Shown: piece after piece, positions 1 to 56,021 of the stretch
Layout: every line of letters begins with the position of its first letter
Numbering within the stretch: position 1 is the first letter of the stretch
DNA from: Caecitellus pseudoparvulus
Lineage: Eukaryota > Protista > Bigyra: Bicosoecida
Assembly: GCA_965644315.1 (NCBI GenBank)
Contig: CBFFRQ010000066.1
Location: forward strand, 558,001 to 622,000
DNA: 64,000 bases
Direction of reading: 5' to 3'
Translations under genes and position numbers: made by a program
The notes under the pieces: model-generated
The model's database searches: none
What the model saw: only the letters and a program-made list of their open reading frames with translations
Told to the model about the DNA's origin: nothing

Positions 1-1945
1 CTCCTGAATTAACTAAATTATCATATCTAATATAATTTGACTCCATATATATGCTTGAAACGTTTTTATTGTTATCACTAGGGCGTATTAATATTAGTTT
101 TTTTGCTTCTGCTTCATTAATATTTTGAATGTTATTATCATTCATATTTATATCAGTATTGAAAGAACCAGCACTAGCAACAGCATTATCAACATAATTT
201 TTTGTTGCGGCGTCTGTATTTGCTGTAGGTTCTGCCAGTTGTTCTATTTTATTATACCCCATATTTAATTTATAATTAGTATCAATATGATTTCTTGTGA
301 TTTGAAGAGCCATAACATCGTTTGTTCCGTCTTTCACATAGAATCTGTGACCTCCAAATGAGCTATTTATTAAACTATCATAACTTACATAATTTCCAAC
401 CATTCTAATACTTGCCACGCTTTTATTACCATCATCAGGTTTGATTAATGTTAATCTTTTTGCTTGTGCTTCATCAATATCTAAAATGTCATTATCATTT
501 AAATCTAATTGTGTGTATGAAGTTGTGAGAGATTCAGAAAATCCAAAAATGTCTTGGTCTCCTGAAGTTTCGGTAAGTGTTGTTATTTTGAATGTTTTTG
601 CAGGTGCTGATGAGTATAATTCTAAAGCTGTCCCAGACCCTGCATTATTAGTTCTAAATTCCCAAGGTCTTCCAGTTTCAAAACGTAATAAGCTTTGCAT
701 TCCTGCTGATGTATTCTCAAGTATCATTTTATTTGTGAAAGTTTTTTCACCCCCTACATTTTGATTTGTTGTTAAATTTACATAATCAGTTGGTATATTA
801 TCATCTACATATTTTTTTGTTGCTGCTTCATCGTCATCTACAGGCTCAGCAAGACCATAAAGAATATTATTTGACATATTAAAAGGTAGTAATGATTGAA
901 CGCTATTATAATTTATATTAAATGTATTTATTACAGTTCCAGAATTATTATTAAAAAATGAATGTCTATTATTTCCACTACCATTAACATAACGCATTAT
1001 ATTTGTTGTTGGTTCTGACTCAAGATAGTTTGCTTCACTGCCGTCAGTCCTAATTAATATCATTTTATTAGTTTGTATATCTTGTTCAGTAATCAGGGTA
1101 TTTGTGAAAGTTTTTTCACCCCCTACAGTTTGATTTGTTGTTAAATTTACATAATCAGTTGGTGCATTATCATCTACATATTGTTTCGTTGCTGCGTCTC
1201 CAGAAAGTATAGGAGCGCCGACGGAAACCAATCTATTATTATTCATTGAAAGCCTTGTTAAACAATCAATTTGATTCGAGTGTGCGTTAATTCGTAGCAT
1301 TAATGTTTCTGTTCCTCCCTGCATAGTATAAAATGTGTGGCTTCCTGATGATGATTCATTTAAAAATACCAAATCGCCGTTTTCATCTGAATATATTGCT
1401 CTGTCTGTGTCTTGTGTATCTGGATTAATGAACCTTGATTTATGTAAATGTGTATCAGTATTAAATGTTTTAACCCCTGAAATATCTTGATTACCTGATA
1501 ATTTAACCGTATTATTATCAAATTGTTGTTTTGTAATTGGTTCATTTTGGCTGTTTGCATCTCTCACCCTTACTGTGCCTAAATCATACGGTTGTTCTAA
1601 TGTTGTTAATGGTTCGGTTGTTGCATTATTATAAACAATACCTACATCTTGACCGCTTTTAAATATTAAACCTTTGTATCTTGTATTTCCTGCTATATTT
1701 TCTTTTGCAGTAAAACCAGTATCAGCATTAACAGCAGGTGTAGCATTATTAAATTCAACAATTGCATCTTTTACTTTAAATGTTTCAATTTCATTAATGA
1801 TTTCTTCTCCATCCACTTCTAAATTATTTTCAATTGTAACATTTTTAAAAGTAATATTATCTCGTTCTTCCAGTTCTTGAATTACATTTTCCACTAAGCC
1901 TGACCCATTCAAATTTAATGAATAAGATATTCTTGAATCGTCCAT
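1..1945 (-). CDS. Fibre/spike-like repeat protein, >648 aa, 3' end outside window (absent from ORF track)
   Basis: Manual translation from ATG at 1945 (MDDSRISYSLNLNGSGLVENV...) stays open to position 1. Contains three (D/E)AATKxYVD motifs and YVNLTTNQxVGGEKTF / LSGNQDISGVKTF motifs typical of phage tail-fibre and trimeric adhesin stalk repeats. Confidence 0.8.
   Translation of the reverse strand, partial: MDDSRISYSLNLNGSGLVENVIQELEERDNITFKNVTIENNLEVDGEEIINEIETFKVKDAIVEFNNATPAVNADTGFTAKENIAGNTRYKGLIFKSGQDVGIVYNNATTEPLTTLEQPYDLGTVRVRDANSQNEPITKQQFDNNTVKLSGNQDISGVKTFNTDTHLHKSRFINPDTQDTDRAIYSDENGDLVFLNESSSGSHTFYTMQGGTETLMLRINAHSNQIDCLTRLSMNNNRLVSVGAPILSGDAATKQYVDDNAPTDYVNLTTNQTVGGEKTFTNTLITEQDIQTNKMILIRTDGSEANYLESEPTTNIMRYVNGSGNNRHSFFNNNSGTVINTFNINYNSVQSLLPFNMSNNILYGLAEPVDDDEAATKKYVDDNIPTDYVNLTTNQNVGGEKTFTNKMILENTSAGMQSLLRFETGRPWEFRTNNAGSGTALELYSSAPAKTFKITTLTETSGDQDIFGFSESLTTSYTQLDLNDNDILDIDEAQAKRLTLIKPDDGNKSVASIRMVGNYVSYDSLINSSFGGHRFYVKDGTNDVMALQITRNHIDTNYKLNMGYNKIEQLAEPTANTDAATKNYVDNAVASAGSFNTDINMNDNNIQNINEAEAKKLILIRPSDNNKNVSSIYMESNYIRYDNLVNSG
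730..1195. repeat. Near-identical ~95-bp direct repeat in fibre gene (copies ~730-826 and ~1099-1195, period 369 bp = 123 codons)
   Basis: tttgtgaaagttttttcaccccctaca.tttgatttgttgttaaatttacataatcagttggt..attatcatctacata occurs twice. Confidence 0.9.
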
Positions 1946-1995
1946 ATATATTTATAGTGTATAAAAAAAAATATTCTTACAAACTATAATAAAAT

Positions 1996-2838
1996 TTAAT
2001 AATGTTCTTGGGCTGTCCTATATTGTTTGATGATTAAAGATAACTTGACCGAACCACCTTTAATTTTTACTTCTTGATATTCATCATCTAATAGAATAAA
2101 ATCAAGTTGGTTTATTTGGTTGTTTTCTAATAGGTCGTGATTAAAAAATATTTCATCATCTGAGATATAATCGGAGTATGTCCCAATACCTGCTTCAATA
2201 TTTAAACTTAGAAGGACTGGATATTTTAACCTGTTTAAACCTGAACCAAAATAAGAGTTATTTAAAATGCCTTGCTTCATACAAATAAAAACCTTACTAG
2301 TAGCGATAAGATTAGGGTAATTATCACCAATGATATTATTTGATGGGTCAATTTTAATAGCTTCACCGTCGTTATTTTGACTTGCTGGAAATCCTATTTT
2401 ATTCCAAAACTTACCATAATTACCAACTGTTGAAAATTTAATATAATTAGCATCGTTATTAACAATTTTTAAACGTAATGTTGTTGCATCTTGTGTTATT
2501 GTTACATTTCCTCCAGCTGTATTTATAGCCCCTTGTAAGTATGTTGCGAATTGCTCTGTAGAACTAAACACAAGATTCTCATTTACGGTATGTTCTGTTG
2601 TTGATCCATTCTCTATTTCAATTGAAAATGTAGCCCTATCAATTGGATTAAATTGGGGGAATGTATTGGGGACGGATGCAGATTGAACGATAAGACGGTG
2701 GATATAATCACCCCCTGATAAAACAAGCGGTGTCGTGTTAAATTGGGTTGTCCATTCGTAAGTTGTATCATCTGTTCCTTTGTCAATTGCACTATTAATA
2801 TAAATTTCTAAAGTGTTGTTGATATCAATTAAGCTCAT
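1996..2838 (-). CDS. Minor capsid (penton) protein, single jelly-roll
   Basis: 280 aa. N-terminal IYINS, SASVPNTFPQFN motif and C-terminal INQLDFILLDDEYQEV resemble PLV/virophage pentons. Directly downstream of the MCP gene. Confidence 0.75.
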   Translation of the reverse strand: MSLIDINNTLEIYINSAIDKGTDDTTYEWTTQFNTTPLVLSGGDYIHRLIVQSASVPNTFPQFNPIDRATFSIEIENGSTTEHTVNENLVFSSTEQFATYLQGAINTAGGNVTITQDATTLRLKIVNNDANYIKFSTVGNYGKFWNKIGFPASQNNDGEAIKIDPSNNIIGDNYPNLIATSKVFICMKQGILNNSYFGSGLNRLKYPVLLSLNIEAGIGTYSDYISDDEIFFNHDLLENNQINQLDFILLDDEYQEVKIKGGSVKLSLIIKQYRTAQEHY

Positions 2839-2939
2839 TTTATATATTCTTAATTAAGAAAATAAAAAATTCAATTAAAAATTAAATTAGTATTTTTACT
2901 TATTCTTTTTAAAAGGATAAAAGAAAAATTCTTTTTTAT

Positions 2940-4277
2940 TTATTCTACTACTTTTGCTACACCCCCCGCAAGTTCTAATTGACGTTTAAATTTTGTAAGA
3001 CATACTAAATTTTTATTTGAAAAATGTTCAGGTGCTTGAGCTGTATCAAAATCAACAACTAAAGCAGATGAACCAACAAGACTATTAAATCCGTTTTCTG
3101 TTGCGTGTTGGCTATCTTCTGGGGTTTTTAGGAAGAGTCCGCCAAGGACTTGACAAGTATTCACATCTCTTGCCATTTGTGCTGAATATTCGGATGCATA
3201 GCTTCGGCTATGTAATTCAGGTTTTGCAGTTCGTAAAACACCTTCAAAGTGGTCTGTGTATAAGCTTTCACCATTTGCACCATTTACATTTGCATAAGGT
3301 TCTCCTGTAAATTGAATGCGATAATTTGAAGCAAAATTAGTAAAACCATCTCCTACATCTTTCCATACGAAATCGTTTGTTGGGTCTATTGCTAATGTAT
3401 TATATCCGTTTGCGTTTGAACTTCCTGAAGGAACTGTTACATAAGCAGGTAATAAAAGAGTGCTGATAATATCACGCTTTTTAATATTGAATTGGTGTGA
3501 ATGTGTAGTTGCATTTTGAAGGGTCTGATAAGATAAATCATAGCCATAAAATCGATTTACAATTCCTTTTGTGCTTGAACTGTTTGATGTTGGATCAACC
3601 TTTTTTAACATCAGTTGCGCCCCTAAGTTTGTTAATTGGTAAGCTTCCATACTAAACTTAACGTTGTTTAATTCATATTTTATTTGTGCTGTTGGGTCTG
3701 TCCCTCCTGCTGATTTAAATAACATATCTAATTTACTTTGAAGAGTAATTTGAACATTAATAGGAGTGTTACCAACAGGAATTAATTTTTTTAAGTCTAA
3801 TCCAAACAGAGACATAGGAATTGAAAAAGCATAACTTGAAGCCCCTGTTGCACTTAATTCTACATCTTGAAGAGTTTTAACGTTATGAATTGCTAATTCT
3901 TCAGCACTCATATTTAATTTTTTATTCATCATAGCTACCAAATAAGCGTGCTTGCTTAAATTCACAACTAATGCACCCCCAACATATACCTTTAATTGTT
4001 CAATAACTGAGCAAATATCGCCACATAATTTGACATTTGAACCTACTTGACCTCCTGTAACTTTAAATTCACCATCTAATGATAGCGTATCAGCTTGGGG
4101 AACGTGTGAGCCTGTTTGTATTGTTGCATTAAGATTAGTATTTAAATTACCGAATCCGCTGCGTGTCCCTTGCAGGTCGTATTGAAGTCTAGACCTGCTA
4201 TTTACGAGCTTATTAGCTTTTGTTCTTGCACCATCTAAAACACCGCCTAATAGATAAACCTCGTCCTTTTTTTCCAT
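2940..4277 (-). CDS. Major capsid protein, double jelly-roll, PLV-type
   Basis: 445 aa, beta-rich. Contains SVIEQLKVYVGG and FSIPMSLFG..KLIP..NVQITL..YELNNVKF patterns. Lies between the ATPase and penton genes. Confidence 0.8.
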   Translation of the reverse strand: MEKKDEVYLLGGVLDGARTKANKLVNSRSRLQYDLQGTRSGFGNLNTNLNATIQTGSHVPQADTLSLDGEFKVTGGQVGSNVKLCGDICSVIEQLKVYVGGALVVNLSKHAYLVAMMNKKLNMSAEELAIHNVKTLQDVELSATGASSYAFSIPMSLFGLDLKKLIPVGNTPINVQITLQSKLDMLFKSAGGTDPTAQIKYELNNVKFSMEAYQLTNLGAQLMLKKVDPTSNSSSTKGIVNRFYGYDLSYQTLQNATTHSHQFNIKKRDIISTLLLPAYVTVPSGSSNANGYNTLAIDPTNDFVWKDVGDGFTNFASNYRIQFTGEPYANVNGANGESLYTDHFEGVLRTAKPELHSRSYASEYSAQMARDVNTCQVLGGLFLKTPEDSQHATENGFNSLVGSSALVVDFDTAQAPEHFSNKNLVCLTKFKRQLELAGGVAKVVE

Positions 4278-4325
4278 TCTATATATACATTTAGAAAAGA
4301 AAATTATTTTTATAAAAATATTTAT

Positions 4326-5051
4326 TTAAAACTTACTATATATTTCGTTCATTTTGTTATTATAAATCTTCCCTGTTTTCTTATTTAATAAAATAAAACT
4401 ATACTTTTCACCCAAATTATCATATACAAGTTCTTTAAATTCTTCGGTGTTTATATACTGTGAAAAATTATCATCGTATATTTTCCATATTTCCTCATCT
4501 GAACAATTCCAATAAATGGAAACTAAAGTTGAATTAAGCATTCTTACATCACGCCCTAAGAAATGATATTTTTGCGTTGCTATTATACAACCTGTATTTT
4601 TATGTCGTCCTGATGCAAACAACTCAGATAAAAAATTTGTTTTATGGTTGGTGTTCATTTCGTGGTTATATGCCATATCATCAAAAATAAATAAATGTGG
4701 AACTTTTGGATTTAATCCTTTGTATATGTTCTTTAATTCTTCAAAATCTAATGTATCCATTATTAATAATTGCTCTTCATCTAGCTTTAATTTATCAGCC
4801 ATTTTTGATATATGTCTTATTGTTGTATCTGTCCCACTAATTAAAATTATTCTGCTATCTTCTGATTTTGTGTAATATTCTTTACACCAATCCCATAAAA
4901 TATTATGTATCATTTGAGTTTTTCCTGCTTGGCTTGGTCCTGTTAATATCATTCGTGGATGCTCTCCAATTATTGGATGAATTATATTTTTATATTTTTT
5001 ATCCTTGGTTATATCGTCCTCTTCAAATGTATAAACTTTAAATTCTGTCAT
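4326..5051 (-). CDS. A32-like (FtsK-HerA) genome packaging ATPase
   Basis: Walker A GPSQAGKT, Walker B LFIFDD, and GRHKNTGCIIATQKY..VRMLNS motifs characteristic of the family. Confidence 0.92.
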   Translation of the reverse strand: MTEFKVYTFEEDDITKDKKYKNIIHPIIGEHPRMILTGPSQAGKTQMIHNILWDWCKEYYTKSEDSRIILISGTDTTIRHISKMADKLKLDEEQLLIMDTLDFEELKNIYKGLNPKVPHLFIFDDMAYNHEMNTNHKTNFLSELFASGRHKNTGCIIATQKYHFLGRDVRMLNSTLVSIYWNCSDEEIWKIYDDNFSQYINTEEFKELVYDNLGEKYSFILLNKKTGKIYNNKMNEIYSKF

Positions 5052-5073
5052 ATATTAATTAATTAGAAAAAAT

Positions 5074-7146
5074 TTATTTGCCACGTCCTCGTAAAATTCG
5101 CCCCTTTCTTGTTTTCGCTTGTGTTCTGCGTCCTTGTGCTTGTCCTGCTCCTCCTCCTTCTATTTGTCCAGCATAACTTTTTACAATATTTCTTATTTTT
5201 TCTTCCTTGTCTGCTTGTGTAACGCTATCATATGGTTTCCCTGCATCTGGTGAAAAAAAATATGCTTTGCGTTTAATTATATCTTTCATTGCGTCCTCTG
5301 TTACGTCCATTGATTTTATTAAAGCTTTCATATCTTTACTTGGTGAGCCTGATAATAATAATTCTATTTCTTGTGCAATTTGTGCATCTGGATTTTCTCC
5401 ACCCATTACACTTACTTTAATTGAATCTATAAATTGGTTTAATTTTTCGTCTTCTGTGGCTGTTAATTCTCTTACTTCATCTCCTGCTGCAGCTGCTGGG
5501 GCTGGTGCGTCTGTTGGTTCTGGTCTTCTTGGTGCTGGTTCTCTTGTATATATTCCGCTTTTTGGGTCGGCTAAAATTTTAATTACTCTTTTTGCATATT
5601 TTTCTGCCCCTTCTTTTTTTCCGTTTTCATACGTTATTCTTGGTATTTTTTCTGCATTAACTTTAACTAATTCTAAAATTTGTTGTCCATAATATCCCAT
5701 TTGTGTTTTAAATCCACTTGAAGAAATTTCTATTTCGTTATCAGCTAAATATCTATTTAATATTGCATACAAAAATCCTAAATATTGTGGCTTCTTATCT
5801 TGGTTAGCATTTGCTAAATACATTTCTTCTCCTAATTTCTTAGGGTCTTCTTCTTCTGCTTTTTTTAATATGGGAGCTAATGTTAATTTTTTAATCTTTA
5901 ATAATTTTGGTAGGTATAAATAATATACTTCGTTTCGTTGTCCATCTGGTAAGGTATTATATTTAATATCCGCTCTTGCTTTTTTTATTTGTTCTTCTAC
6001 TTTACCAAAATCAATTTTTGAAATAACAATAACTTTATCTTCTAGGGGTAGGGCGTCATATTGTGGTATATTATTTAATACTTGTTTTAATATTGTAATA
6101 GTTTTTGATTCCTTATCACCTGCAATAATATTTATATCCGACTCTTTAATTTTTAATTCGTCAGCCTGTGTTTCATCTAATGAATTTCTTGCTTTTTGAA
6201 TAAAATTTTTCATCTTGTCTATCATACTAGTTCTTGGAGCACCTGTTATTCTTTTTTGGTTCAATACTCCTATAAATTCGTATGCTATTTTATCGGCGAG
6301 GTCTTGGTATTGTTTATCTTTATTTTCTTGTCTTACTTCATCTCCCCTTTGTTGAACTCTTTCCAATAATTTCATACGGTTTTTTCTTAATTCTTCTTGG
6401 CTTGGAATTCCTGCCCCTGTGTCTGCTGGCTCAGGTCGTCTAGGGGCTGGAGCTGGGGCTTCTGTTGTTGGCTTATCTACTGTATGAATACCGCCGCTTG
6501 TATCTATCATTTGTGCCGTTCCTGCTTCTTTGCTTTCACCTGCTCCCCCTTGTGAAGGTGGTTGTGAAGGTGGTTGTGAAGGTGGTTGTGCTGGTGGCTG
6601 GTCTGATGCACCATCAAATTTTTGATTTATTTCTTGTTGCATTTGATTTATTGGCTTTTGTTGTGCAATAAATGATGGGTTAAATTTGTTCTTTAAAAAT
6701 GATTCAGTAGCTTTTGACCTTAAATTTAATATTTCCGCTTGTGAGAGGTTATGACGTTTTCCAAATGCATCAATATAATTTAATATATTCTTTAATTCTC
6801 GTTGTTCTTCATCTAATTCTAGCGTTTCAGGTGTTAGCCCTAAGCTTTTGAATAATTGGTTTTGTATCTTTTCTTCTTTCATTTGCTCATTAAAAAAAGC
6901 TTGTTCAAATGTTTCATCTGTTGTCCCCCAACCTTCATCATAAAACTGTTTGTTATGTAAAATTCGGTCTGCATTTGTAATAACTTCATCTAAATCAATA
7001 TCATCTGCGTCTTCGGCTTCTTGAGGCTCTAATAAATCGGTTCTATAATTTAATAAACCTAAATTTACTAACTGGGTGTTTCTTTCCTCATTTAGCTCTT
7101 CTTGCATTTTATAAATCTGCTCATCTGTCAAAATAAATGGGTTCAT
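5074..7146 (-). CDS. Hypothetical 690-aa protein, possible virion core protein
   Basis: Long ORF in the structural module. Acidic N-terminus, PPSQ x3 and PAPRRPEP x2 repeats, Arg/Lys-rich C-terminal tail. Confidence 0.6.
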   Translation of the reverse strand: MNPFILTDEQIYKMQEELNEERNTQLVNLGLLNYRTDLLEPQEAEDADDIDLDEVITNADRILHNKQFYDEGWGTTDETFEQAFFNEQMKEEKIQNQLFKSLGLTPETLELDEEQRELKNILNYIDAFGKRHNLSQAEILNLRSKATESFLKNKFNPSFIAQQKPINQMQQEINQKFDGASDQPPAQPPSQPPSQPPSQGGAGESKEAGTAQMIDTSGGIHTVDKPTTEAPAPAPRRPEPADTGAGIPSQEELRKNRMKLLERVQQRGDEVRQENKDKQYQDLADKIAYEFIGVLNQKRITGAPRTSMIDKMKNFIQKARNSLDETQADELKIKESDINIIAGDKESKTITILKQVLNNIPQYDALPLEDKVIVISKIDFGKVEEQIKKARADIKYNTLPDGQRNEVYYLYLPKLLKIKKLTLAPILKKAEEEDPKKLGEEMYLANANQDKKPQYLGFLYAILNRYLADNEIEISSSGFKTQMGYYGQQILELVKVNAEKIPRITYENGKKEGAEKYAKRVIKILADPKSGIYTREPAPRRPEPTDAPAPAAAAGDEVRELTATEDEKLNQFIDSIKVSVMGGENPDAQIAQEIELLLSGSPSKDMKALIKSMDVTEDAMKDIIKRKAYFFSPDAGKPYDSVTQADKEEKIRNIVKSYAGQIEGGGAGQAQGRRTQAKTRKGRILRGRGK

Positions 7147-7187
7147 ATATATTATAGACTAATAAAAAAAATTATTGGTTTATACTT

Positions 7188-7625
7188 TTAATAATATTCT
7201 TGTTCCATTTGTTTTAAAATTTCCTCAATTGTATAATCTTTATTTTCCTTTGGTTCTGGTTCTTTTATTATTTCTGGTTTTAGGATTTTTACATACTTTT
7301 TTATTCGCTCCTCTTCCTGCAATCTTGCTTTTTGTTCCCTTCTTCTTCTATATGTTTCTTGTGCCTTCTTTCTTGCATTTCTTAATTGCTCTTGCTTTCG
7401 TTCCGATAATACTTTACGTTGGTTTAATTGCCTTGTTGGCTTATGATAATATTTTCTTGATATATCAATTGGTGGTTCAATCTTAGTTTCTGTGTTAATT
7501 TCAATCTCTTCAATCTTAGTTTCAGTCTCTTCAATCTTTGAACACACTGAAAATTTATTTTTTATATAATTAATAAGCTCTTTTAATTTTTCATAAATAA
7601 ATAATATTGTATAATGTATAATCAT
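7188..7625 (-). CDS. Hypothetical viral protein (145 aa, charged helical)
   Basis: Same strand and packing as neighbours; AT-rich viral codon usage. Confidence 0.55.
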   Translation of the reverse strand: MIIHYTILFIYEKLKELINYIKNKFSVCSKIEETETKIEEIEINTETKIEPPIDISRKYYHKPTRQLNQRKVLSERKQEQLRNARKKAQETYRRRREQKARLQEEERIKKYVKILKPEIIKEPEPKENKDYTIEEILKQMEQEYY

Positions 7626-7658
7626 TTTTATAGGTTATAATTATAACCAATAAAAAAA

Positions 7659-7940
7659 TTAATCAAATCTTACGGTTAGCAATTCTTTATGCACACGCTT
7701 CATTTTCTTTTTTAATGCTTCCTCTTGTTTTCTTTCTCGTTCGGATTCAATAAATTCATCATATGTTAAATATTCTTCGGTATAATCTAAATGTTGAACT
7801 AAATAATAATCAGGACAACTTTTTATAAATTCTACTCGTTGTTGGTTTAGCTGTTTTAAATGTTCTATGTATGCGTTATATTCTTCTTTGGTTGGTTCTC
7901 GTCCTTCAAAAGGGTCTTCATAGTTGTATTTTTTATTCAT
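7659..7940 (-). CDS. Hypothetical viral protein (93 aa)
   Basis: Tightly packed co-oriented ORF with AT-rich leader. Confidence 0.55.
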   Translation of the reverse strand: MNKKYNYEDPFEGREPTKEEYNAYIEHLKQLNQQRVEFIKSCPDYYLVQHLDYTEEYLTYDEFIESERERKQEEALKKKMKRVHKELLTVRFD

Positions 7941-7972
7941 ATTATATATTTGTTTTATAAAAAAAAAAATCT

Positions 7973-8770
7973 TTAAGAACTTATTGTTGGTTTGCCATAA
8001 TATAATTCACTGTTTGTTGGTGTTACACTTTTTAAAATAAAATCAATTGAATGGGCTTCTATTAAATTCTTTGGTTCTGGTTTTGGTTTTAAAACTGTTG
8101 TATTAGGAATTAATAATTTACTTGTTTCGGCTATAATATCGCCTTCCATAACATAAGATTTAATTATATTACTGTCAAAAATATCTTTATAGCTATTACG
8201 AACGCCTAGGATTTTGCTTTTAAATTCCCTTATGCTTTTGCTTAATTGTTGTGTTGGGGATGCTCCAATATTATAAACAATCGCAGGAATACCATATTCA
8301 TTACTTGCATATACTGCTTCAAAACCTCCTAAAGAATGACCAGTAAAATATATATTCTTTATTCCTACCTCTTCTAAAGTGTTTAACATCTTGTTTAAAC
8401 GGTTTGTATTAATTAATAAATTTAATGAAAAGCTACCCCCTGCAATAATATTTAAATCGTCAATAAAATCTATTGGGTCTGTTTGTGTTCCTCTAAATAC
8501 AATAAAAGCTTTTGGGGTTGCTGTTAAATCAATAAATACTGCCATTTTACGGTTGCTTAATGTTTCATTATAAATTAAGTTACTTGTAATAAATGGTCTT
8601 GATGTAGGGCTATCATATACTAATTTACACGCTACCGCACATTGGTATGCATCCCACGGTATAGGGACTTTATAAACGGTCTTTTTAGTAATTGTTGAAG
8701 TTTGCAAAGTTGGTTTATCTGCTGGATTTCCAAGAAAAAAATCGTTAAAGTAATCCACTATTTTATCCAT
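7973..8770 (-). CDS. Class-3 lipase / alpha-beta hydrolase
   Basis: IVFRGT, FTGHSLGG nucleophile elbow, GDII and C-terminal HS catalytic positions. Confidence 0.88.
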   Translation of the reverse strand: MDKIVDYFNDFFLGNPADKPTLQTSTITKKTVYKVPIPWDAYQCAVACKLVYDSPTSRPFITSNLIYNETLSNRKMAVFIDLTATPKAFIVFRGTQTDPIDFIDDLNIIAGGSFSLNLLINTNRLNKMLNTLEEVGIKNIYFTGHSLGGFEAVYASNEYGIPAIVYNIGASPTQQLSKSIREFKSKILGVRNSYKDIFDSNIIKSYVMEGDIIAETSKLLIPNTTVLKPKPEPKNLIEAHSIDFILKSVTPTNSELYYGKPTISS

Positions 8771-8795
8771 ATATTATTATACATAGATAAAAAAT

Positions 8796-9023
8796 TTACT
8801 CAACTATTAAATTTTCTTGTGTTTCAATACGATAAACTTTTTTATTTATTTTTAGCTCCTGTTTATTCTCGCTTTTCATTCTATTGCTTAGGAGTTCTAA
8901 TTTTTCCTTTAGTTCGCCTTGAAATTCTTTTATTTGTTTGCGTAGGTCTTGTATTAGTTCCTTTTGTTCTTCTATATCGTGTCCTAATTGGGTTAAATCC
9001 ATATTTAAATATTTACGGTGCAT
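8796..9023 (-). CDS. Small coiled-coil viral protein (75 aa)
   Basis: Heptad-like E/K/L-rich ORF, co-oriented and tightly packed. Confidence 0.5.
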   Translation of the reverse strand: MHRKYLNMDLTQLGHDIEEQKELIQDLRKQIKEFQGELKEKLELLSNRMKSENKQELKINKKVYRIETQENLIVE

Positions 9024-9061
9024 TATATATTAATTAAATATATTATTTTATATTGATGCGT

Positions 9062-9286
9062 CTAAATTGTAATATAATTTAACGGCTTTAATTTATCTAC
9101 TGGTATAAGTAAATGGTCTTTAATTATTGAACGGTCAAAACGTTTAATTGGCTTGGTTTTAAATTCTTTAAACACTTTGGGGCGATATTTGATATAATAT
9201 ATCCCATCCGTAAAATTAAACATAAAATAAAACCGTGTATTAGGGTTTGTTTTTAATTGTTCTTTAATATATGTTATCTTTTCCAT
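9062..9286 (-). CDS. C-terminal half of a split PD-(D/E)xK nuclease
   Basis: EKI..FYFMFNFTDGIYYIKY..F..F..IPVDKL matches my recollection of the C-terminal part of small viral PD-(D/E)xK nucleases whose N-terminus resembles ORF 10039-10290. Confidence 0.6.
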   Translation of the reverse strand: MEKITYIKEQLKTNPNTRFYFMFNFTDGIYYIKYRPKVFKEFKTKPIKRFDRSIIKDHLLIPVDKLKPLNYITI

Positions 9287-9345
9287 ATTAATTAATATAT
9301 GTTAAAAAACGACTTAAAAAGAAGAAAATATATATAATTAATAAA

Positions 9346-10014
9346 ATGGTAAATTATAAAGATGGTAAAATATATAAGCTTGTTGGTGGTGGTCTGACTT
9401 ATATCGGCTCAACTACTCAAAGACTATCAAAGCGAAAATATCAACATAAAAAAATAAAAAATTGTTCATCCAGACAATTAGTTGATTATGACGATTTTGA
9501 TATTATTTTAATTGAAATTTTTCCGTGTGATACTAAAGAGGAATTACACACAAGAGAACGATATTATATTGAAAATACTGAATGCATAAATCGGAACATA
9601 CCCACAAGGAGTATTAAAGAATACCGAGAAGCTAATAAAGATAAACTTAAAGCATACCGAGAAGATAATAAAAATAAAATTAAAGAATATTATAAAGCAA
9701 ATAAAGAACGAATAAGACAAAAAAATAAAAAATATATAGAAGCAAATAAAGAAAAATTAAAAAAACAACGTAAAGAATATTATAAAGCAAATAAAGAACG
9801 AATAAGACAAAAGAATAAAGCATATATAGAAGCAAATAAAAAAAGAATAATGCAAAAGAAAAAAGCATATTATGAAAAGAATAAAGATAATCTTAAAGCA
9901 TATTATGAAGAAAATAAAGAACAAATAAAGGAAAAGAAAAAAGCATATTATGAAAAGAATAAAGATAAAATAAAAAAACAACGAAAAGCACGTTATGAAG
10001 CACAAAAAAAATAA
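9346..10014 (+). CDS. GIY-YIG endonuclease with Lys-rich repeat tail
   Basis: GKIYKL..TYIGST..LSKRKYQH..IILIE.FPCDTKEEL..RE.YYI..CIN, followed by YY/YIEANKE repeats. The only plus-strand gene in the element. Confidence 0.9.
   Translation: MVNYKDGKIYKLVGGGLTYIGSTTQRLSKRKYQHKKIKNCSSRQLVDYDDFDIILIEIFPCDTKEELHTRERYYIENTECINRNIPTRSIKEYREANKDKLKAYREDNKNKIKEYYKANKERIRQKNKKYIEANKEKLKKQRKEYYKANKERIRQKNKAYIEANKKRIMQKKKAYYEKNKDNLKAYYEENKEQIKEKKKAYYEKNKDKIKKQRKARYEAQKK
9681..9840 (+). repeat. 90-bp-period direct repeat (two 15-aa units) in the GIY-YIG tail
   Basis: taaagaatattataaagcaaataaagaacgaataagacaaaa starts at both 9681 and 9771. Confidence 0.85.
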
Positions 10015-10043
10015 ATAAATTATTATAAAATAACTTATTTATT
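10010..10043. terminator. AT-rich hairpin between convergent GIY-YIG and nuclease N-half genes
   Basis: AATAAATAA (10010-10018) pairs with TTATTTATT (10035-10043), with an inner TTATT/AATAA stem. Confidence 0.4.
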
Positions 10044-10290
10044 GTTTATTTAAAAGTTCATTTAATACATACCTCATTTTATATTTATTGCGTGTATTGG
10101 TTCGTGTTTTAAGCTCAATATTATATTTATTATCAATTGATACGAAATCAAAATGGTTATAGCAATATGTAGTTTTATAAAATTTATTTTTAGTTACTTT
10201 ATTTATTTGTTCTAATACTTTTTGTTCTTGTTGTAAGCCAAATTTTAAATCTCTTTTAATGCTCTGTATATCGAGGCTGGTGTGCCACAT
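10039..10290 (-). CDS. N-terminal half of a split PD-(D/E)xK nuclease
   Basis: DLKFGLQQE..VL..YNHFDF..NIELKTR carries the E...D...ExK active-site pattern, then ends prematurely after KYKM. Confidence 0.7.
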   Translation of the reverse strand: MWHTSLDIQSIKRDLKFGLQQEQKVLEQINKVTKNKFYKTTYCYNHFDFVSIDNKYNIELKTRTNTRNKYKMRYVLNELLNKQ

Positions 10291-10443
10291 ATAATATAGA
10301 AATAGAAAAAAACCAAAGAAAAAGGTTCTTATATAAAATGAAAGAATAAGGTGCGTTAGGTTATAACCATTATATTATTAATTCCCTTTTAAAAGGTTTT
10401 TTTGGTGTCCAGAAAAAAGGTTATGAGGGTGGGATTTACGGTC

Positions 10444-10870
10444 GGACAGGAACAGGAAAATTATTTAAAAAACCTTATTTAGGAAATACCTTTTTCTATT
10501 TTTTTTTAAAATTTGCTGTCTGTCCTGTCTCCTGTCTTAGGTTATTTTATATTAGGTCTTCATTTTATTTCTCATATGAAAGGTAAATTTTTAAAATGGG
10601 TATTATTTTTGGGACAGACAGATACAGCAAAAATTGGTAATTAAATTGAAATATCAAAAAGCTTTTTCTATTTTTTTTTTAAATTTGCTGTCTGTCCTGT
10701 CTCCTGTCTTAGGTTATTAAAATATAATATATAATAATTTCTCATATGAAAGGTAACCCTCAAAAAGAAAAAAATTTATTTTTTTCCGCTATTCATTAAA
10801 TCTCATTTGATGAATTAAGGAAGGAAAGAAAAAAGCGAATGCGACCTTCTTCCTTCCCTTTTTTTTTCTT
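10444..10870. repeat. Terminal repeat region of the element (probable TIR): two ~96-bp direct repeats plus inverted subcopies
   Basis: Copies at 10490-10586 and 10662-10756 (ctttttctattt..aaatttgctgtctgtcctgtctcctgtcttaggttatt..tttctcatatgaaaggtaa). Inverted partial copies at ~10444-10472 and ~10612-10635. Purine/pyrimidine tract 10817-10870. Confidence 0.75.
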
Positions 10871-10880
10871 GCTTGGGCAG

Positions 10881-13800
10881 AGAGGTCATAGTGCCCGGAG
10901 CACACCGACAGCTGAAGTTGCCCTTGAGCTGGCACGAATTGACGAGAGTGAAGCCGAACGGCTTGCAGCAGTGGAAGCTGTTGCGCAGGTGCGCCTGGCC
11001 AAGTTCCTAGCCGCTGCAGAGGGGGAAGCCGGGGCGTGCACGAGTGCAGCACGGTCGTTCGGTTATGCGATACAAGTTCAAGAGCGACAGCTGGAGCTGT
11101 CCCGAAGTGCCATCGAGGCCCTACATGGGGCCGTGCAAGATCACGAAGCAGAGAGTGCTCGGCAACAAGAGGAGCTTGCGCGCGCCCAAGCCGCTGAGCT
11201 TGAAGCGGCTGTGACGGACATGGAGGCGGAGGCGCTACTTGCAAAACATCAGCTGGAAGCAGAGGAGCTGAAGGCAAAACTCGCTGCTGCTGAGCGGCAG
11301 AAGAGCCTCGCCTTGGAGGAAGTGCGCACCCGGCAGGCGTTGGCGTTGGAGGAGGAGGTCAAGCGGTTGCTTGCCGAGCACGAGCGAGAGCAGGACACCG
11401 CCTCTGCAGCCCGATTGGCAGTGCGGAAAGCCCAGCAAGCCTCAGCAAAGAAGGAGCTGGCGGCGCGCCAGGCACGCCGACGCCAAGCTGCAGCACGGCG
11501 GATGGAAGCTCAGCTGTCGCTAGCTCAAGAGGAGGGAGGGGCGACTGATGAGTTGGAAGCAACACTCCAACAGTGCCTGGATGCCAGTGCTAGTGAAGAG
11601 GAGGGGGCACTGCGGGCGCTGGATGACACATGCAGTGTCGACCAGGAAGCTGCGACTCGGCAGTATGCTGCAGGGGTCACGGCTGGCGTCTCGGAGCGAT
11701 TGCGGGTGGGCTCCACCACCGCTCTGGAGAAGAAGGAGCAGGCAGAAACTGCTGCTCGTATGGCAAGGAACTTGTCCAGCAGCATCGTGGAACAAGCTGA
11801 CAGCGTTCGGCAAGCGATTGAATCCGGAGACCTGCAAGAAGCCACAAGCAAAGCGTATGCTGCTGGTGCTGAGGTCGCCCACGACCGACATCAGGCGACT
11901 CTAGCGGCTCTGCGCGCCCAGCATGAGAAGTGGAAGCAGGAGCAAGAAATGATCTCTTCCATAGAAAGCTCCCTACTTGCTGAGGCGGCCAGGATTCAAG
12001 AAGTATACGCCGCTCAGCGACAGGCGACTGTAAATGCGAAGGGCTGTGCCAGACAGAAGCAGGCCATGGCATTGGAGCTCAAGCTGCAGCGACGCAAGCA
12101 AAAGAAGGCAGCATTGGCTGCCCAGCAGCGAAATGCCAAACGGAAGGAGTTCGTGGCTCGCCAAGAGGCTGAGCTGACTCGGCTGCTTCGGGAGCAGCGC
12201 AGCAAGGTGATGCAGTCTGCTAAGAACGGGAGCCTTTCCATAGTCCATGCTGTTGAGGCTGCAGCAGCAGCAGCTGGTCAGAGCCATGATCAAGAGGCAG
12301 ACAGCGAGGCGGCTGGCATTCAGGCTGAGTACGAGGCAAGGCGCCTGGAGGTAGCCCAACGCCACGCAGCAGAGCTTCAGCGTCTTCGAGATGAGGCGGA
12401 AGAGGAAGAACGGCAGGTGTCCCAGCAAGCTCTTGACGCTGCTGAACGCATGAAACGCGAGCGACTGGCAGCTCTGGAACGGGAAGGCGCAGCGGAAGCT
12501 CAGTGGGGCGCATCGGAGGCGCAGCTTGCCGAAATCAAAGCTGCTCAGGTTGCTGAAGCGCAGAAGGTAGAAGCAGCGGTGGAGGAAGAGCGAAAGAAAC
12601 AGTTGGATAAACTTCAAGCTCAAATTGCAGCGCGGCGTTTGCGGAAAGAGCGCCGGCTGGCTGCCCGGCATGCGCATGAGTCGTCCGAAGTGGAGCGGGG
12701 GGAAGTGCAGGCGCTCGCCGCGTCGCAAGCAGCGGCTGCGAAGCGCAGGGACTTGGTAGCGCTGGAGAGTGCCATACAAGCATCACAAAGCACAGCTGAC
12801 AAGGGGGCTGCCATCGAACGGGTGCTGCGTGTTCGCCATGCACAGGAAACTTCCAACTTGCTGCATGCCCAGTTTGCGCAGCGCTCTGCAGAGCTCAAGC
12901 ACGCGTTGCATGAGATCCTCGGCCTCAAAGCTGAGGAGAAAGCGGAGCTCATGGCAACACTGGAGGAGGCGGAGGCAAGCGATGGCGAGGTGACCCTTGC
13001 CCTGAGTGAACTGGATGCAAAGTTCCAGCAAGCCCTGGCCATCAAGCGCAAGGAGCTCTCGGCGCAGCTGGATGCACAGCACGAAGCACAGCGCGCGGAG
13101 CTCCAACGCCGGCAGATGACAGAGCTTACGGATTCATTTGCGCAGCTGAATCCAGCTGACGTGCTGCGTCGGCAGCAGGCCAAGGAGCGGGAGAGAGCTG
13201 CAGCTGAAACAGAGGACTTGAAGCGACGACTGTTGCTCGAACGCCAGAAGAAGCTTGAGGCTGCTGCAAAGCTTCGTGCCCAGCGTGAAGCGGAGCTTGA
13301 AGCAGCAAAGACTGAAGCGCAGCAGGCGCTTGCGGCACAGCTCGAAGCGCAGAAGGCTGAGCAAGAGCAAGCCATGCGTTTGCAAATGGCAAGCCGCAAG
13401 GCACGACTGCAAGCAGAGGGAGAAAGCAAGATGAAGGAGCAGCTGGAGCTGAGCGGTGAAGATGAAGATACGAAGCGGCGCGTCCTTGAGGAACACAAGC
13501 GCAACATGCAGAGGCTGGAAACGTCCATCTCAAAGGAGCGCCGGCGACAAGCGGAACGTCTGCAGGCACACTTATTGAAGAGGAAGCAGAAACTGCTGCG
13601 AAAGCAGCAGAGAGCACTTGCCCAGGCAAGTCAAGCCGTTGCATCCCAAAGCATTCAGCAGCTGGACACTGCCCTTTCCTCTGCGCACACTATGCGAAGG
13701 GGTCGCAGGAAGGCGGGAGGCGACAAGGTTGCACCCGCAACGGGTGCCCCGACAACTACAGGAAGCGAAGTCTCCCCAGCAAAACCTCCGAGGCCTAGTA

Positions 13801-14672
13801 AATCTCAAGGGCGGAGAGGTCCTCCGAAACTTGCAACCGTGGCGAGCACTGGTGTGCTGGAGCAACGTTTGGGGAACATCGAGCGCTCCTTGGCGAACTT
13901 GCTCTCAGCTACAGCACACATCCCGTCAGCGGCACCGATGCTATGCAGTGCTGATGCGTTTGAGCTTCGTATCCGGGTCGGTAAATTCGTTGAAGTTGCC
14001 AAGGAGCTGCCAGTGGAAGCTCAAGGCATGCTCAGCTTCGGCCAGCGACTCATGTCTACCCTTACTGAGGAAAAGCACCAAGTGCACTTGAAGCCTGCAA
14101 AACAACTGCCCCCTGCAGTAAGCGAGGGGAACGCTTTCAGTCGTTCATATCTGTTTGACCAACCTGCTGGCATCCTGTACGTGCACATTGAGCGACTGTC
14201 GAGGGGAGCCCGCCTACCCATTGTCCTGGCCCACGCTGCAGCTCACATGAAGGTTGATCCGTCAACCATGGGGCCTGACACGAACTCTGTATTTCAAGGG
14301 TGCTTTGGGGAGTTCTTGGCCCAAGTGAGTGAGCTTCTTCTGGAGTTCGGCGGTGGGGTGACGCTAGCTGACTCGGCCCAGCCTCCACCTGATTCGGTGG
14401 CCTTTGCCGCGACGGGAAGCACCCTAGACAAGCCGGAGGCGACGCTGGCAATGCGCTTGCCCTCCTTGGATCCACATCCAGGCCTGGAGGGTGGGGCCGG
14501 CGCGCCTGCGGAAGCCGTTCCTGGCGGCAGGGCTCCAAGCGTCCGTTTAGACACTCGTGCTGATCGTTTGCTCGCCATGCTTGGCCAGAGCAGCACGCGC
14601 AAAATGGACACAGGGGCGGTGGCAGCCCGAGCTCGCGAGTACTCCTCCCGGGCAAAGTCCTTGCTGCAGTGA
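10881..14672 (+). CDS. 3' part of a very large host coiled-coil protein, 5' end interrupted by the viral element
   Basis: >1200 codons of E/A/Q/R-rich coiled coil and a C-terminal GNAFSRSYLFD..LYVHIERL..LAHAAAH domain. The tracked ATG at 10839 lies in AT-rich element sequence. Confidence 0.75.
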   Translation, partial: RGHSARSTPTAEVALELARIDESEAERLAAVEAVAQVRLAKFLAAAEGEAGACTSAARSFGYAIQVQERQLELSRSAIEALHGAVQDHEAESARQQEELARAQAAELEAAVTDMEAEALLAKHQLEAEELKAKLAAAERQKSLALEEVRTRQALALEEEVKRLLAEHEREQDTASAARLAVRKAQQASAKKELAARQARRRQAAARRMEAQLSLAQEEGGATDELEATLQQCLDASASEEEGALRALDDTCSVDQEAATRQYAAGVTAGVSERLRVGSTTALEKKEQAETAARMARNLSSSIVEQADSVRQAIESGDLQEATSKAYAAGAEVAHDRHQATLAALRAQHEKWKQEQEMISSIESSLLAEAARIQEVYAAQRQATVNAKGCARQKQAMALELKLQRRKQKKAALAAQQRNAKRKEFVARQEAELTRLLREQRSKVMQSAKNGSLSIVHAVEAAAAAAGQSHDQEADSEAAGIQAEYEARRLEVAQRHAAELQRLRDEAEEEERQVSQQALDAAERMKRERLAALEREGAAEAQWGASEAQLAEIKAAQVAEAQKVEAAVEEERKKQLDKLQAQIAARRLRKERRLAARHAHESSEVERGEVQALAASQAAAAKRRDLVALESAIQASQSTADKGAAIERVLRVRHAQETSNLLHAQFAQRSAELKHALHEILGLKAEEKAELMATLEEAEASDGEVTLALSELDAKFQQALAIKRKELSAQLDAQHEAQRAELQRRQMTELTDSFAQLNPADVLRRQQAKERERAAAETEDLKRRLLLERQKKLEAAAKLRAQREAELEAAKTEAQQALAAQLEAQKAEQEQAMRLQMASRKARLQAEGESKMKEQLELSGEDEDTKRRVLEEHKRNMQRLETSISKERRRQAERLQAHLLKRKQKLLRKQQRALAQASQAVASQSIQQLDTALSSAHTMRRGRRKAGGDKVAPATGAPTTTGSEVSPAKPPRPSKSQGRRGPPKLATVASTGVLEQRLGNIERSLANLLSATAHIPSAAPMLCSADAFELRIRVGKFVEVAKELPVEAQGMLSFGQRLMSTLTEEKHQVHLKPAKQLPPAVSEGNAFSRSYLFDQPAGILYVHIERLSRGARLPIVLAHAAAHMKVDPSTMGPDTNSVFQGCFGEFLAQVSELLLEFGGGVTLADSAQPPPDSVAFAATGSTLDKPEATLAMRLPSLDPHPGLEGGAGAPAEAVPGGRAPSVRLDTRADRLLAMLGQSSTRKMDTGAVAARAREYSSRAKSLLQ

Positions 14673-30577: not shown

Positions 30578-32244
30578 TCACTCGGGGTAGTACGACTGCA
30601 CGAGGGTCAGAGCCCCCGTAATCCACACCGTCATGCCCACCGCTCCCGCCACTGTGGACAAGAACACCACCGTGCTGGCTTCCCGTTGGGCGTACCGCTC
30701 CATGTCCGCAAGGATGATGATGTTCAGGGCAGAGGGGCAGGCGAACTCGATGATGAACAGGAAGGGCAGGACGGGGGATGTGGAGCCTGGGCCCAGCACG
30801 CCCGCCTCCAGCAGCCCAGCGACAAACCCGAAGCCCACAGCGGGCATGAGGAGCAACTTCACAGCCAGGGAGGTGAGGAGAACAGGCGTGGATATTCTGC
30901 TGGACAGGCCAGGCGGGCTGTGTGGGGAGGCCTCCACCACACTGCCGGCATCCTCGATGGAGCCGCTGACGCTGCCAGACCCTGACGCCGCACAGGGGAT
31001 GTCCACGTGCAAGTCAGGGTGGTGCACTGAGGCAGCTGACTGCGAGCGGGGGCTGCTGCCCGCAGCACTCTCAATATCCCCCCCCTCGGCGCTCTCAGTG
31101 GCTTCCCCCTGAGCAGCCGTGTCAGGCGTGGGGCCAGCCCCAGCTTTGTGCGCGCTCGCCCCGCAAGGCGAATCTCCCGGAGCACTGTCTTCGCACAGCA
31201 AGTCTGGCGTCTTGCGTTGAAGGGTCTCGACGTCCTCCTCTGCCCCTTTGCCACGCTCAGGCTCATCTTCGCGGGAACTGCGCCGCTCAAACACCATGTC
31301 GTGCATGGTGGCGCCCAGCTGCAGCAGGACGATGGGCACGACAGTCGTGCCGAGGGACTTGATGGCTGCCGTCACTGTGGGCTCCAGTGGCGCCAGATCC
31401 TCGCCCTCTTCCGAGTGTAGGAGGGCCTTCACGGGGGGGATGAGGCCCAGCACGATGCCGGCGAGGCACCCCGCGATGGGGGGCGTGATGGCGCTACGCA
31501 GCCCCGAAGCGAAACGCTGCCATGTCGAAACAGGTTCGTCAGATGCCGCTTGTGTTGGTTCGCTCTGCAGGGCCACTGCAGGGCTGGCGCCAGGCGTGCT
31601 GGCCAGGTACCGCTGCTTGTCCAGGCGCATGAACCAGTGGATGAGGGTCCAGCTTGACAGGTTCACCACCATGAGGTAGATGCTGATGACAGACACTGCG
31701 AGGGTGATATCTGCCTCCGTGTCCCTGGCCTCACCGAACGGCTTCAGAGACAGCACAGAGGGCACAATGGACAGGGGCAGGTAGCCTTGGTTTGACACGG
31801 CTGCGCTGGCTGCCATCATCCACCGCCCAAACATGGGGGTTGCCACGGCTGGAGCGCACCAAACCAGTAATTCGTGTGCCCAGTACCCCATGCAAGCTCC
31901 TAGCAGCGTGCCTCCCACCGCAAACCCGAGCACGCCTGCGCGAGCGGCACGCCAGGATGTTTGTGGTTGCGGAATGCGGAAATACTTCCCTGTGCGCCGA
32001 GGCAGCGTGGCGCAGAGGCTTCACACTCACTGGCAAGCGTGGTCAGCGCATCTGCACTCATGGCTTTGGACACTGAAACAAAGAGCAGGCAGGGGAGCAG
32101 CACCTGAAACACCAGCTTGCTCAGGCCACTCAGGTGCTTGTCGAACAAGCGGGCCAACTTCTGCAGCACGAAGCCGGCCAGCACGACCAGGAGGAAGTTC
32201 GAGGTGCCCTGCACAGCTGCTGAAATAGTGAGGCCTAGCGACAT
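30578..32244 (-). CDS. PIN-LIKES / AEC (Mem_trans) transporter, copy 1
   Basis: LSKLVFQVLLPCLLF, NQGYLPL, TPP..G, VPIVLLQLGA, KLLLMP, PSALN. One intron. Confidence 0.85.
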
Positions 32245-32495
32245 GCTGAACTTGGTGGCTGCTGCTGGCTTTCGTCGCTCTGAGGTAGGCGCTTGGCCAC
32301 GTGCGGATTTCTCCGCTCAGCACAGAATACTGCGGTGAAAGGTCGGTGATGCGGGGCTTCCGTTTGCGCAAGGCCAAGGCTGCCAGGTTCAAACTGCAAC
32401 TTGTGCAAGCTCGCAGGGATTCAGGGCCGTGTATAGCTTCATGCTTGGGGGATTGAATTTGTCGTTTGGGAGACTTTGACAGACGGGTGCCACCA

Positions 32496-33903: not shown

Positions 33904-34175
33904 CGGGGGTATCCTTCTTCACACGCAGGCTGCACGGCTCTTGAACACTGCCCTGAATCCCTGCCAGGGCTTCAGTGCGCTGTGGTGCTCTTCACTCGGC
34001 CTGTGCTCGCTCACGGCTCTGGTCGACGGAACATGTACATTGCAAACATCACCTGGGGGCCCTTCCTCCTTGCGAACGGGCAGCGTTTGCTTAATGACTA
34101 GAAAGGTGGAATGCCACGGGCAGCGGCGCGTCCCTACTGCTGTGTGATGGGAGGGCGAAAGGTTGCCTTGTGAGG

Positions 34176-55724: not shown

Positions 55725-56021
55725 GGTCGAGTGAAGCCAGACACACTTGAAATGCCTGGCACCAAACTACACCTCGTAAAATTCCCATGAACACAGCTGG
55801 ATTGACTGTACTCCCGTTCCTCAGCGTGCCTAGCGCCGTGTCTCCACTCCTGGCCGCCACAGGTGAGCATGCACCGGTGCAAGTGCGGAAGTTGCACCCT
55901 CACAAGTCAACTTCCACAACGCCTCCCCGCCACGCCAACACACCTACCCACTGCCATCATCCCGCAGGAGTCGGCAACACAGCACTGTTCCACCTGACCA
56001 GAGCCCCTGCCATCCATCGCC

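Follow-up and report, generated by a model that had tools for sequence, protein, structure and literature searches.

A 64,000-nt stretch of contig CBFFRQ010000066.1 (positions 558,001 to 622,000; hereafter the window, in whose own coordinates all positions are given) opens with an AT-rich island, and the question raised by this locus is whether the island is a virus that entered the host chromosome recently and could still be called out of it. An earlier note, made from the letters of the window alone, had read it as an intact and possibly inducible endogenous Polinton-like virus (PLV). We find that the visible element is the capsid-gene arm and the right end of a PLV, that it interrupts a host reading frame, and that the insertion is likely recent.

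Over 1-10867 the GC content is 0.294, as against 0.645 for the remainder of the window, and the step between the two is at most 50 nt wide. A scan of the window for further low-GC stretches gave no other 500-nt segment with GC below 0.55. The AT-rich island and the sharp junction described in the earlier note are borne out; its end coordinate, 10896, is not, the boundary between element and host being 10867/10868. The features on which the argument leans are the following, TCTA positions being those of a motif upstream of the gene:

1-10867, no strand: right arm of an integrated PLV, delimited by GC content and junction; it extends past the window start
2940-4277, minus strand: major capsid protein (MCP), 445 aa, predicted double jelly roll from an AlphaFold2 fold and structure search; TCTA at -18
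4326-5051, minus strand: A32-like packaging ATPase, 241 aa, Pox_A32 at E 1.1e-6, above the cut-off; TCTA at -16
10346-10867, no strand: right terminal inverted repeat, whose last 30 nt are found at both element ends
10868-10872, plus strand: right copy of the target-site duplication, CTTGC, from empty versus filled allele
10868-14672, plus strand: host reading frame of 1267 codons, rich in coiled coil and without a Pfam family; 3' portion of the gene interrupted by the insertion

Filled and empty alleles at one host site

The junction was followed in 4 of 18 listed runs (X1, X3, X5 and X7), examined as contigs. One contig of X3 spans 10837-10919 (31 letters of element and 52 of host) with no extra letters and no mismatch, and one of X1 spans 10838-10919 (30 and 52 letters) at a depth of 31.9. 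The earlier note had named an unspanned junction as the mark of an assembly chimera. Since contigs from two runs span it, the junction is real.

An empty allele is present in both X1 and X3, with a depth of 32.3 in X1, and the host flank shared by the two alleles has a depth of about 69.5-77. The element likely occupies about half of the chromosome copies, as it would in a heterozygous diploid or in a mixed culture. The other end of the element is seen in X1 as well, where a loose element end behind 10866 joins the host left flank, read as its reverse complement. The empty allele has the sequence CTTGC once, whereas in the filled allele it flanks the element left and right, which is a perfect 5-bp target-site duplication; the second end and the duplication that the earlier note proposed to look for are both there.

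In X7 the letters next to the two element ends are CCCGC and GCGGG, which are mutually reverse complementary and likely represent a second insertion site with a 5-bp duplication; the chance of such a five-letter match is about 0.0015 each. A further flank at the element end was found in X1 and X3. In X5, a marine metagenome, and in X7, contigs (7.3 kb and 35 kb) that are 98-99% like the host DNA of the window cross the site empty. These two runs, which belong to two other studies, are empty here yet contain the repeat and related capsid genes. Each of the four runs has many related element copies at 85-95%.

The empty allele in the same runs, the perfect duplication and the empty sites in other studies all agree with the recent integration proposed earlier, and we regard the insertion as likely recent. 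The lack of amelioration that had also been taken as a sign of recency carries less: the low GC is seen, but it is weak evidence, because low-GC endogenous mavirus-like elements (EMALEs) are described as retaining 30-38% GC even at loci common to strains (PMC8547959).

A double jelly-roll capsid protein of non-virophage type

The sequence of the single MCP gene in the visible arm gave no match in Pfam, PHROG, NCBIfam or PDB. Two relatives at 57% were found by a word search and 16, one of them already known, by a profile search of 1.84 billion representatives. The family comprises 17 relatives of 362-445 aa, and the cluster members that were read had no informative name. An AlphaFold2 model built from the alignment of 18 sequences reached a pLDDT of 82.3 and a pTM of 0.84, and was used in place of one built from only 3 sequences (pLDDT 37). 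In a wide structure search this model matched the capsid protein of PBCV-1 (8h2i) with Z 28.8, rmsd 2.9 and 342 aligned residues, followed by faustovirus (Z 26.9), Sputnik (Z 18.9) and mavirus (Z 18.0), at identities of 7-10%. Rows 1-16 of that search were all double jelly-roll capsids or scaffolds and the first non-capsid appeared at Z 7.0; Foldseek gave E 2e-14. The top predicted viral structure was an unnamed 449-aa protein (E 1e-19, 14% identity). Judged by the modelled fold, the protein is a double jelly-roll capsid protein, and the jelly roll on which the earlier note had staked its reading is present.

The capsid is also of the kind that had been expected, that is, PLV-like rather than of mavirus or Sputnik type. 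None of the 18 family members matched the Pfam Sputnik MCP models at E<=1, while three full virophage MCPs, run as a positive control, scored E 1e-72 to 1e-79; the Z scores are higher to giant-virus capsids. An hhalign comparison of the MCP with a virophage MCP gave a probability of 0.8%, and structural identity to the mavirus and Sputnik MCPs is 7-8%. Under the criteria of PMC9952930, applied with Pfam models and structure, the MCP is not virophage-type. That its relatives are few and unnamed does not prove a new lineage, because the MCPs of different PLV groups are reported not to find each other by sequence (10.64898/2026.06.19.733378; 10.64898/2026.10.13.758929). No MCP relative with surrounding DNA was found in viral, metagenome or genome contigs, in scans that reach close relatives only.

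Gene content of the visible arm

The visible arm has 12 intron-free open reading frames (ORFs), 11 of them on the minus strand, which cover 95% of 1-10290; five nested shadow ORFs are left out of this count. GC at third codon positions is 0.11-0.24 in the ORFs of the element versus 0.60 in the host exon. Read from the right end inward, the transcription order is the N-terminal half of a nuclease, a GIY-YIG gene on the opposite strand, the C-terminal half of the nuclease, a 75-aa ORF, a putative lipase, ORFs of 93, 145 and 690 aa, the ATPase, the MCP, the penton candidate and the fibre. The genes other than MCP and ATPase are:

2-1945, minus strand: fibre-like protein of at least 648 aa with three A-A-T-K-x-Y-V-D repeats, from PHROG matches; cut by the window start
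1996-2838, minus strand: candidate penton or minor capsid protein, 280 aa, suggested by position and size
5074-7146, minus strand: charged 690-aa protein of no known family (Pfam, PHROG and NCBIfam scans without match); TCTA at -12
7188-7625, minus strand: basic 145-aa ORF of no family (ORF list, Pfam)
7659-7940, minus strand: 93-aa ORF of no family (ORF list, Pfam)
7973-8770, minus strand: alpha/beta hydrolase (putative lipase), 265 aa, with GHSLG at 144, from the motif and sub-threshold matches; TCTA at -17
8796-9023, minus strand: 75-aa coiled-coil ORF of no reliable family, with weak matches far below cut-off only
9062-9286, minus strand: C-terminal half of a PD-(D/E)xK-type nuclease, 74 aa, profile positions 73-139 of 141
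9346-10014, plus strand: GIY-YIG endonuclease with a repeat tail, 222 aa, the sole plus-strand gene; Pfam GIY-YIG at E 1.2e-7
10039-10290, minus strand: N-terminal half of the PD-(D/E)xK-type nuclease, 83 aa, profile positions 2-64; TCTA at -16 and -10

The packaging ATPase claimed in the earlier note is confirmed, since besides the Pox_A32 match above cut-off it has the Walker A (residue 38), Walker B and GRH motifs. The penton gene fared less well. The 280-aa protein had no match in Pfam or PDB, which leaves its identity unconfirmed, and hhalign against four virophage-locus proteins, one of them a Pfam-verified penton, gave a probability of 0.1 with thin profiles. Two close homologue clusters, at 85% and 74%, were found, and the longest contigs of the homologues match those of the MCP homologues in length (6021, 8925 and 2368), so that the two genes are apparently linked in relatives. 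From its size, its position and this apparent linkage, the protein is probably a penton or minor capsid protein.

The fibre is supported by matches to phage tail-fibre and head-decoration repeats, the best at E 6e-12, and is a weaker call than the ATPase with its ORF cut by the window start. For the lipase the GHSLG motif is present, and every alpha/beta-hydrolase match lies below its cut-off (Lipase_3 at E 0.006, UPF0227 at E 4e-4), the PDB esterase 4fle being found at E 0.006; both identities are likely on sequence grounds. The charged 690-aa protein is likely a virion or core protein, as suggested by its position and by TCTA at -12. PDB sequence searches with the MCP, penton candidate and ATPase gave nothing useful. 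In viral contigs, where close relatives only were reachable, no relative with flanking DNA was found for the ATPase, penton candidate or lipase. Family scans found no cysteine protease among the 12 visible ORFs; the left arm lies outside the window.

Different arrangements of these genes were seen in the runs. In X1 and X3 a related contig joins the start of the penton candidate to the end of the ATPase (2829-4386) with 27 letters between them and no MCP, and X7 contains joins of other kinds near 1970-2909. The genes may be ordered differently in related elements; the joined sides are short (22 letters).

A nuclease gene split by a GIY-YIG gene

The GIY-YIG gene named in the earlier note is present: its first 89 aa gave the Pfam match, at residues 15-79 and above the cut-off, while the whole 222-aa ORF gave no match in Pfam. 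The accompanying claim that the genes are uninterrupted is contradicted by the two ORFs that flank it. Relatives of the 74-aa ORF occur in 20 IMG/VR loci, and a profile was built from 16 distinct IMG/VR ORFs, all hits of this half and 14 of them full length (133-158 aa). The 83-aa ORF on the other side matches this profile, built from the hits of the other half alone, at E 1.5e-13 among 12 proteins, and PDDEXK_14 of Pfam at E 0.026. By these profile matches the two ORFs are the halves of one nuclease gene divided by the GIY-YIG gene, which is likely a selfish homing-endonuclease insertion. The non-coding flanks of the GIY-YIG gene are too short for a group I intron, which was ruled out on that ground. 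With both nuclease halves and the GIY-YIG gene, tblastn against phages gave no match.

Sputnik-type virophage capsid genes are present in 5 of the 11 nuclease-relative loci examined (a scan of 35 of 77 ORFs and then of 8 locus ORFs, three of these repeats), and the nuclease gene is therefore common to the element and to true virophages. At locus L013 a GIY-YIG homologue (5203-5517, minus strand) lies convergent to, and directly behind, an intact nuclease gene, a layout from which the endonuclease may target the nuclease gene; L003 also has a GIY-YIG homologue. The virophage-type locus L004 encodes a ribonucleotide reductase small chain (343-1302). A Volactin gene lies on the archaeal-looking locus L021 (3324-4430), whose short match to a nuclease half was left unused.

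Terminal repeat and interrupted host gene

Terminal inverted repeats with a target duplication, which serve as a PLV criterion, were found, at least 30 nt being common to both ends. Doubled contig depth suggests that the repeat covers at least 10689-10866; its inner edge is guessed, from where contigs break, to lie near 10346. Within the terminal repeat are a 112-nt direct repeat (10435-10546/10607-10718) and three small hairpins, of which the last, taken alone, is unremarkable (z -0.9), the last 128 nt having z -2.3 and -1.9. A general rule of hairpins at 3' gene ends was dropped, with only 3 of 11 gene ends below z -2. The element closes with a run of 9 T at the right end (10859-10867) and 8 at the other, in both X1 and X7. 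The 27-nt end motif had no match in metagenome contigs, in a scan that reaches close relatives only. One contig of X3 links the repeat at 10763 to CCTAA repeats, either as a truncated telomere-capped copy or by a chance join; the CCTAA repeats are presumably telomere of the TTAGG type.

The insertion interrupts a host reading frame, and the 30 letters of the empty allele to the left of the site, read by eye, contain no stop in the host frame. With a run of 9 T, an ATG in the terminal repeat (10839-10867) is in frame with the host exon. A 1277-aa ORF starting at 10839 was rejected as a junction artefact arising from this ATG. Transcription running outward might, in principle, yield the C-terminal 1267 aa of the disrupted host protein.

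Elsewhere in the host part of the window, three tandem membrane-transporter-like genes of one family are located at 30578-35621, with a resemblance to auxin-efflux carriers. A host ORF at 55998-58607 (minus strand) has about five ankyrin-like repeats and a strong GC skew of 0.28-0.43, and is possibly a repeated or mobile gene family.

TCTA upstream of the genes

Five of the 12 genes, namely those for the MCP, the ATPase, the 690-aa protein, the lipase and the nuclease, have a TCTA that starts between -12 and -18. Shuffling gave 0.67 genes expected (p 0.0002) over -20 to -11, a range from the CroV literature, and 0.92 (p 0.001) over -24 to -11, a range picked after looking. TCTA in AT-rich flanks is the late motif of the giant virus CroV (PMC5294985) and is also reported as such in ChlorV (PMC13196603). 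Among the EMALEs it is said to mark type 4 only (PMC8547959), and type 4 is described as the only one of eight Cafeteria endogenous types to answer CroV (PMC10945749). The motif hints that the element depends on a giant virus and, on sequence grounds, raises the odds that it is inducible. A literature search, short of a full survey, found no report of TCTA promoters on a PLV capsid module.

A model for the element, and its alternatives

The model that we favour starts from the predicted double jelly-roll capsid, the A32 ATPase, the matching ends, the 5-bp duplication, the empty allele and the polymorphic sites. In a second step, a retrovirus-type (rve) integrase and a replicase would be encoded in the unseen left arm, the rve type being suggested because the duplication is 5 bp. 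Duplications of 3-5 bp are given for rve-encoding EMALEs, 13 of whose sites are exonic, and of 5-6 bp for mavirus and Polintons (PMC8547959). We place high confidence in these two steps. Thirdly, the host would be a heterozygous diploid in which the intact allele shelters the broken gene, which we consider probable. Finally, the element would remain silent until a compatible giant virus supplied late transcription; it would then be excised or copied from its repeats, and the ATPase would package it into a capsid bearing penton, fibre and lipase, for release at a virophage-like cost to the giant virus. By analogy with other systems this helper-dependent cycle might equally well hold or fail. 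Integrated Tetraselmis PLVs are reported to be woken by a giant virus (10.1101/2025.10.09.676808), and virions of the PLV Gezel-14T contain fibre and lipase (10.1101/2022.07.28.501842). Copying, packaging and release at the helper's expense are reported for both. Taken as a whole, a recent rve-type insertion of a PLV arm that is silent until a CroV- or ChlorV-like virus reads its TCTA promoters is the account towards which we lean. That an unclassified PLV capsid lineage with a CroV/ChlorV late promoter is actively inserting at polymorphic sites of a marine flagellate, as a heritable, non-virophage defence against Aliimimivirinae giant viruses, and that its promoter tells which helper to seek, is a tentative extension that we think doubtful.

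Several observations pull the other way. The junction is supported by contigs rather than reads, the X1 bridge is one letter below the 31-letter rule, and X1 and X3 may be the window's own source, in which case they exclude mis-assembly and are not independent samples. Contig depths such as 31.9 and 32.3 are not copy numbers, and a culture of two clones would look alike. The integrase, the polymerase and the left end all lie outside the window, and with them the completeness of the element and its type of integrase. One accessory gene is already split, and the penton is predicted only, its sequence tests being blank. The shuffle test is small, with p rising to 0.009 for -30 to -8 and to 0.056 for the whole 40 nt; TTTT scores as high as TCTA, and the penton candidate and fibre lack TCTA. 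Gezel-14T is reported to use an early, not a late, promoter (10.1101/2022.07.28.501842), and TsV-N1 is reported as autonomous (10.64898/2026.06.19.733378).

The alternative that survives best, although we hold it to be unlikely, is an EMALE02-type chimera, in which a mavirus-like left arm (rve integrase, pPolB, primase/helicase) would be joined to a PLV capsid arm. EMALE02 is described as having 6-7 kb in common with EMALE01 and an arm of 11 kb in which ORFans accompany a PLV-like MCP and ATPase, in complete copies of 17.6 and 18.3 kb (PMC8547959); the visible arm here is 10.9 kb at 29% GC. The relatives of the split nuclease on true virophage contigs would suit such a chimera, as would the PLV-virophage gene exchange reported in Halocafeteria (10.64898/2026.07.28.741278). 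However, EMALE types other than 4 are described as being without TCTA (PMC8547959), the host GC of 0.645 differs from the 70-71% given for C. burkhardae (PMC6972860), and no Cafeteria-named protein occurs among the best 120 RIO1 matches or in the 3-member cluster of the identical hit. The RIO1 of the host falls with three unnamed proteins at about 80%, and a quick tree sets it, with weak support, among environmental proteins without names and apart from oomycetes, brown algae, fungi and plants; that the host is a stramenopile flagellate would be a guess.

Rather improbable in our view is an autonomous or purely transposon-like element, which would copy itself or lyse its host without a helper and have TCTA by chance in AT-rich spacers. 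The loss of significance over the whole upstream 40 nt, the 7 of 12 genes without TCTA, the several related copies in the same runs and the replication of TsV-N1 alone are what such an element would lead one to expect. The clustering of TCTA at -12 to -18, on genes of the capsid module, is not, and the endogenous virophages and PLVs on record mostly stay silent when no giant virus is present (PMC10945749; 10.64898/2026.07.28.741278; 10.1101/2025.10.09.676808).

We give still less credit to a dead or truncated remnant, with the visible arm whole and no working left arm. The left arm is unseen and one gene is split, and there are reports of truncated EMALEs and of PLV fragments that have repeats and duplications (PMC8547959; 10.64898/2026.07.28.741278). 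Both ends and a perfect duplication are present, however, all core genes are open, and the active PLV Gezel-14T also has a homing-endonuclease insertion (10.1101/2022.07.28.501842). That the assembly fused host DNA to a free AT-rich virus, as the homopolymer run at the junction and the reliance on contigs might suggest, is scarcely credible: in each of two runs a separate contig set reads across the junction with no mismatch, and both the opposite junction and the duplication agree with the same host site.

Comparison with known systems

The element is a further example of a well-known kind. Protists harbour endogenous PLVs in abundance (Bellas et al. 2023, PMC10120064), and 41 are reported from Halocafeteria alone, some with terminal palindromes (10.64898/2026.07.28.741278). 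The element has in common with the protist PLVs, as these are described, a low-GC island, an MCP with penton (here a candidate) and A32 ATPase, the absence of a protease (here from the visible arm), terminal inverted repeats with a duplication, GIY or HNH nucleases and, as in some subtypes, end hairpins. It differs from them in its MCP, none of whose 17 relatives found is named. A PLV genome is defined as 15-40 kb long with replicase and integrase genes, and 10.9 kb of the element is visible here. In Halocafeteria a CroV-like late motif is placed on a virophage subclade and not on the PLVs (10.64898/2026.07.28.741278). The life style of most PLVs is given as unknown in the same source. Few PLVs have a known helper; here filled and empty alleles occur in one sample, in a mobile family with a promoter motif that predicts a helper. 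Should TCTA-driven induction prove true, promoter matching would hold not for mavirus-type virophages only but also for a capsid lineage unrelated to them. Should it prove false, the element would join the tens of thousands of other endogenous PLVs, and its divergent capsid would be a useful addition to profile sets.

Like mavirus and EMALE04 (Virophaviricetes), the element has TCTA before genes (5 of 12 here), a duplication of rve-type length and, in our model, a silent integrated state. Unlike them it has no protease in the visible arm and the order ATPase-MCP-penton instead of ATPase-protease-penton-MCP. Its 445-aa MCP shows 7% structural identity to that of mavirus with Z 18.0, below the giant-virus capsids. 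Of the pPolB, rve integrase and protease that mark the Mavericks/Polintons (Polintoviricetes), the rve integrase would suit the 5-bp duplication.

Gezel-14T (PgVV) and the Tetraselmis Tsv PLVs are described with a fibre, a lipase and a GIY-YIG homing endonuclease, as here, and with a helper-dependent life, which is reported there and proposed here; the Tsv elements are reactivated from the genome. Gezel-14T differs in its tyrosine recombinase and its AAAATTGA early promoter (10.1101/2022.07.28.501842), whereas the 5-bp duplication of our element points to rve and AAAATTGA occurs only twice in the visible arm, both times inside genes.

EMALE02 of Cafeteria burkhardae, for which PMC8547959 was the only report found, is by analogy of architecture the closest precedent. 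It is described with an ORFan arm of about 11 kb, a PLV-like MCP and ATPase, low GC in a high-GC host, duplications of 3-5 bp and exonic sites (PMC8547959). Likened to it by description only, the present element apparently belongs to another host species, and it has the TCTA that is reported absent there.

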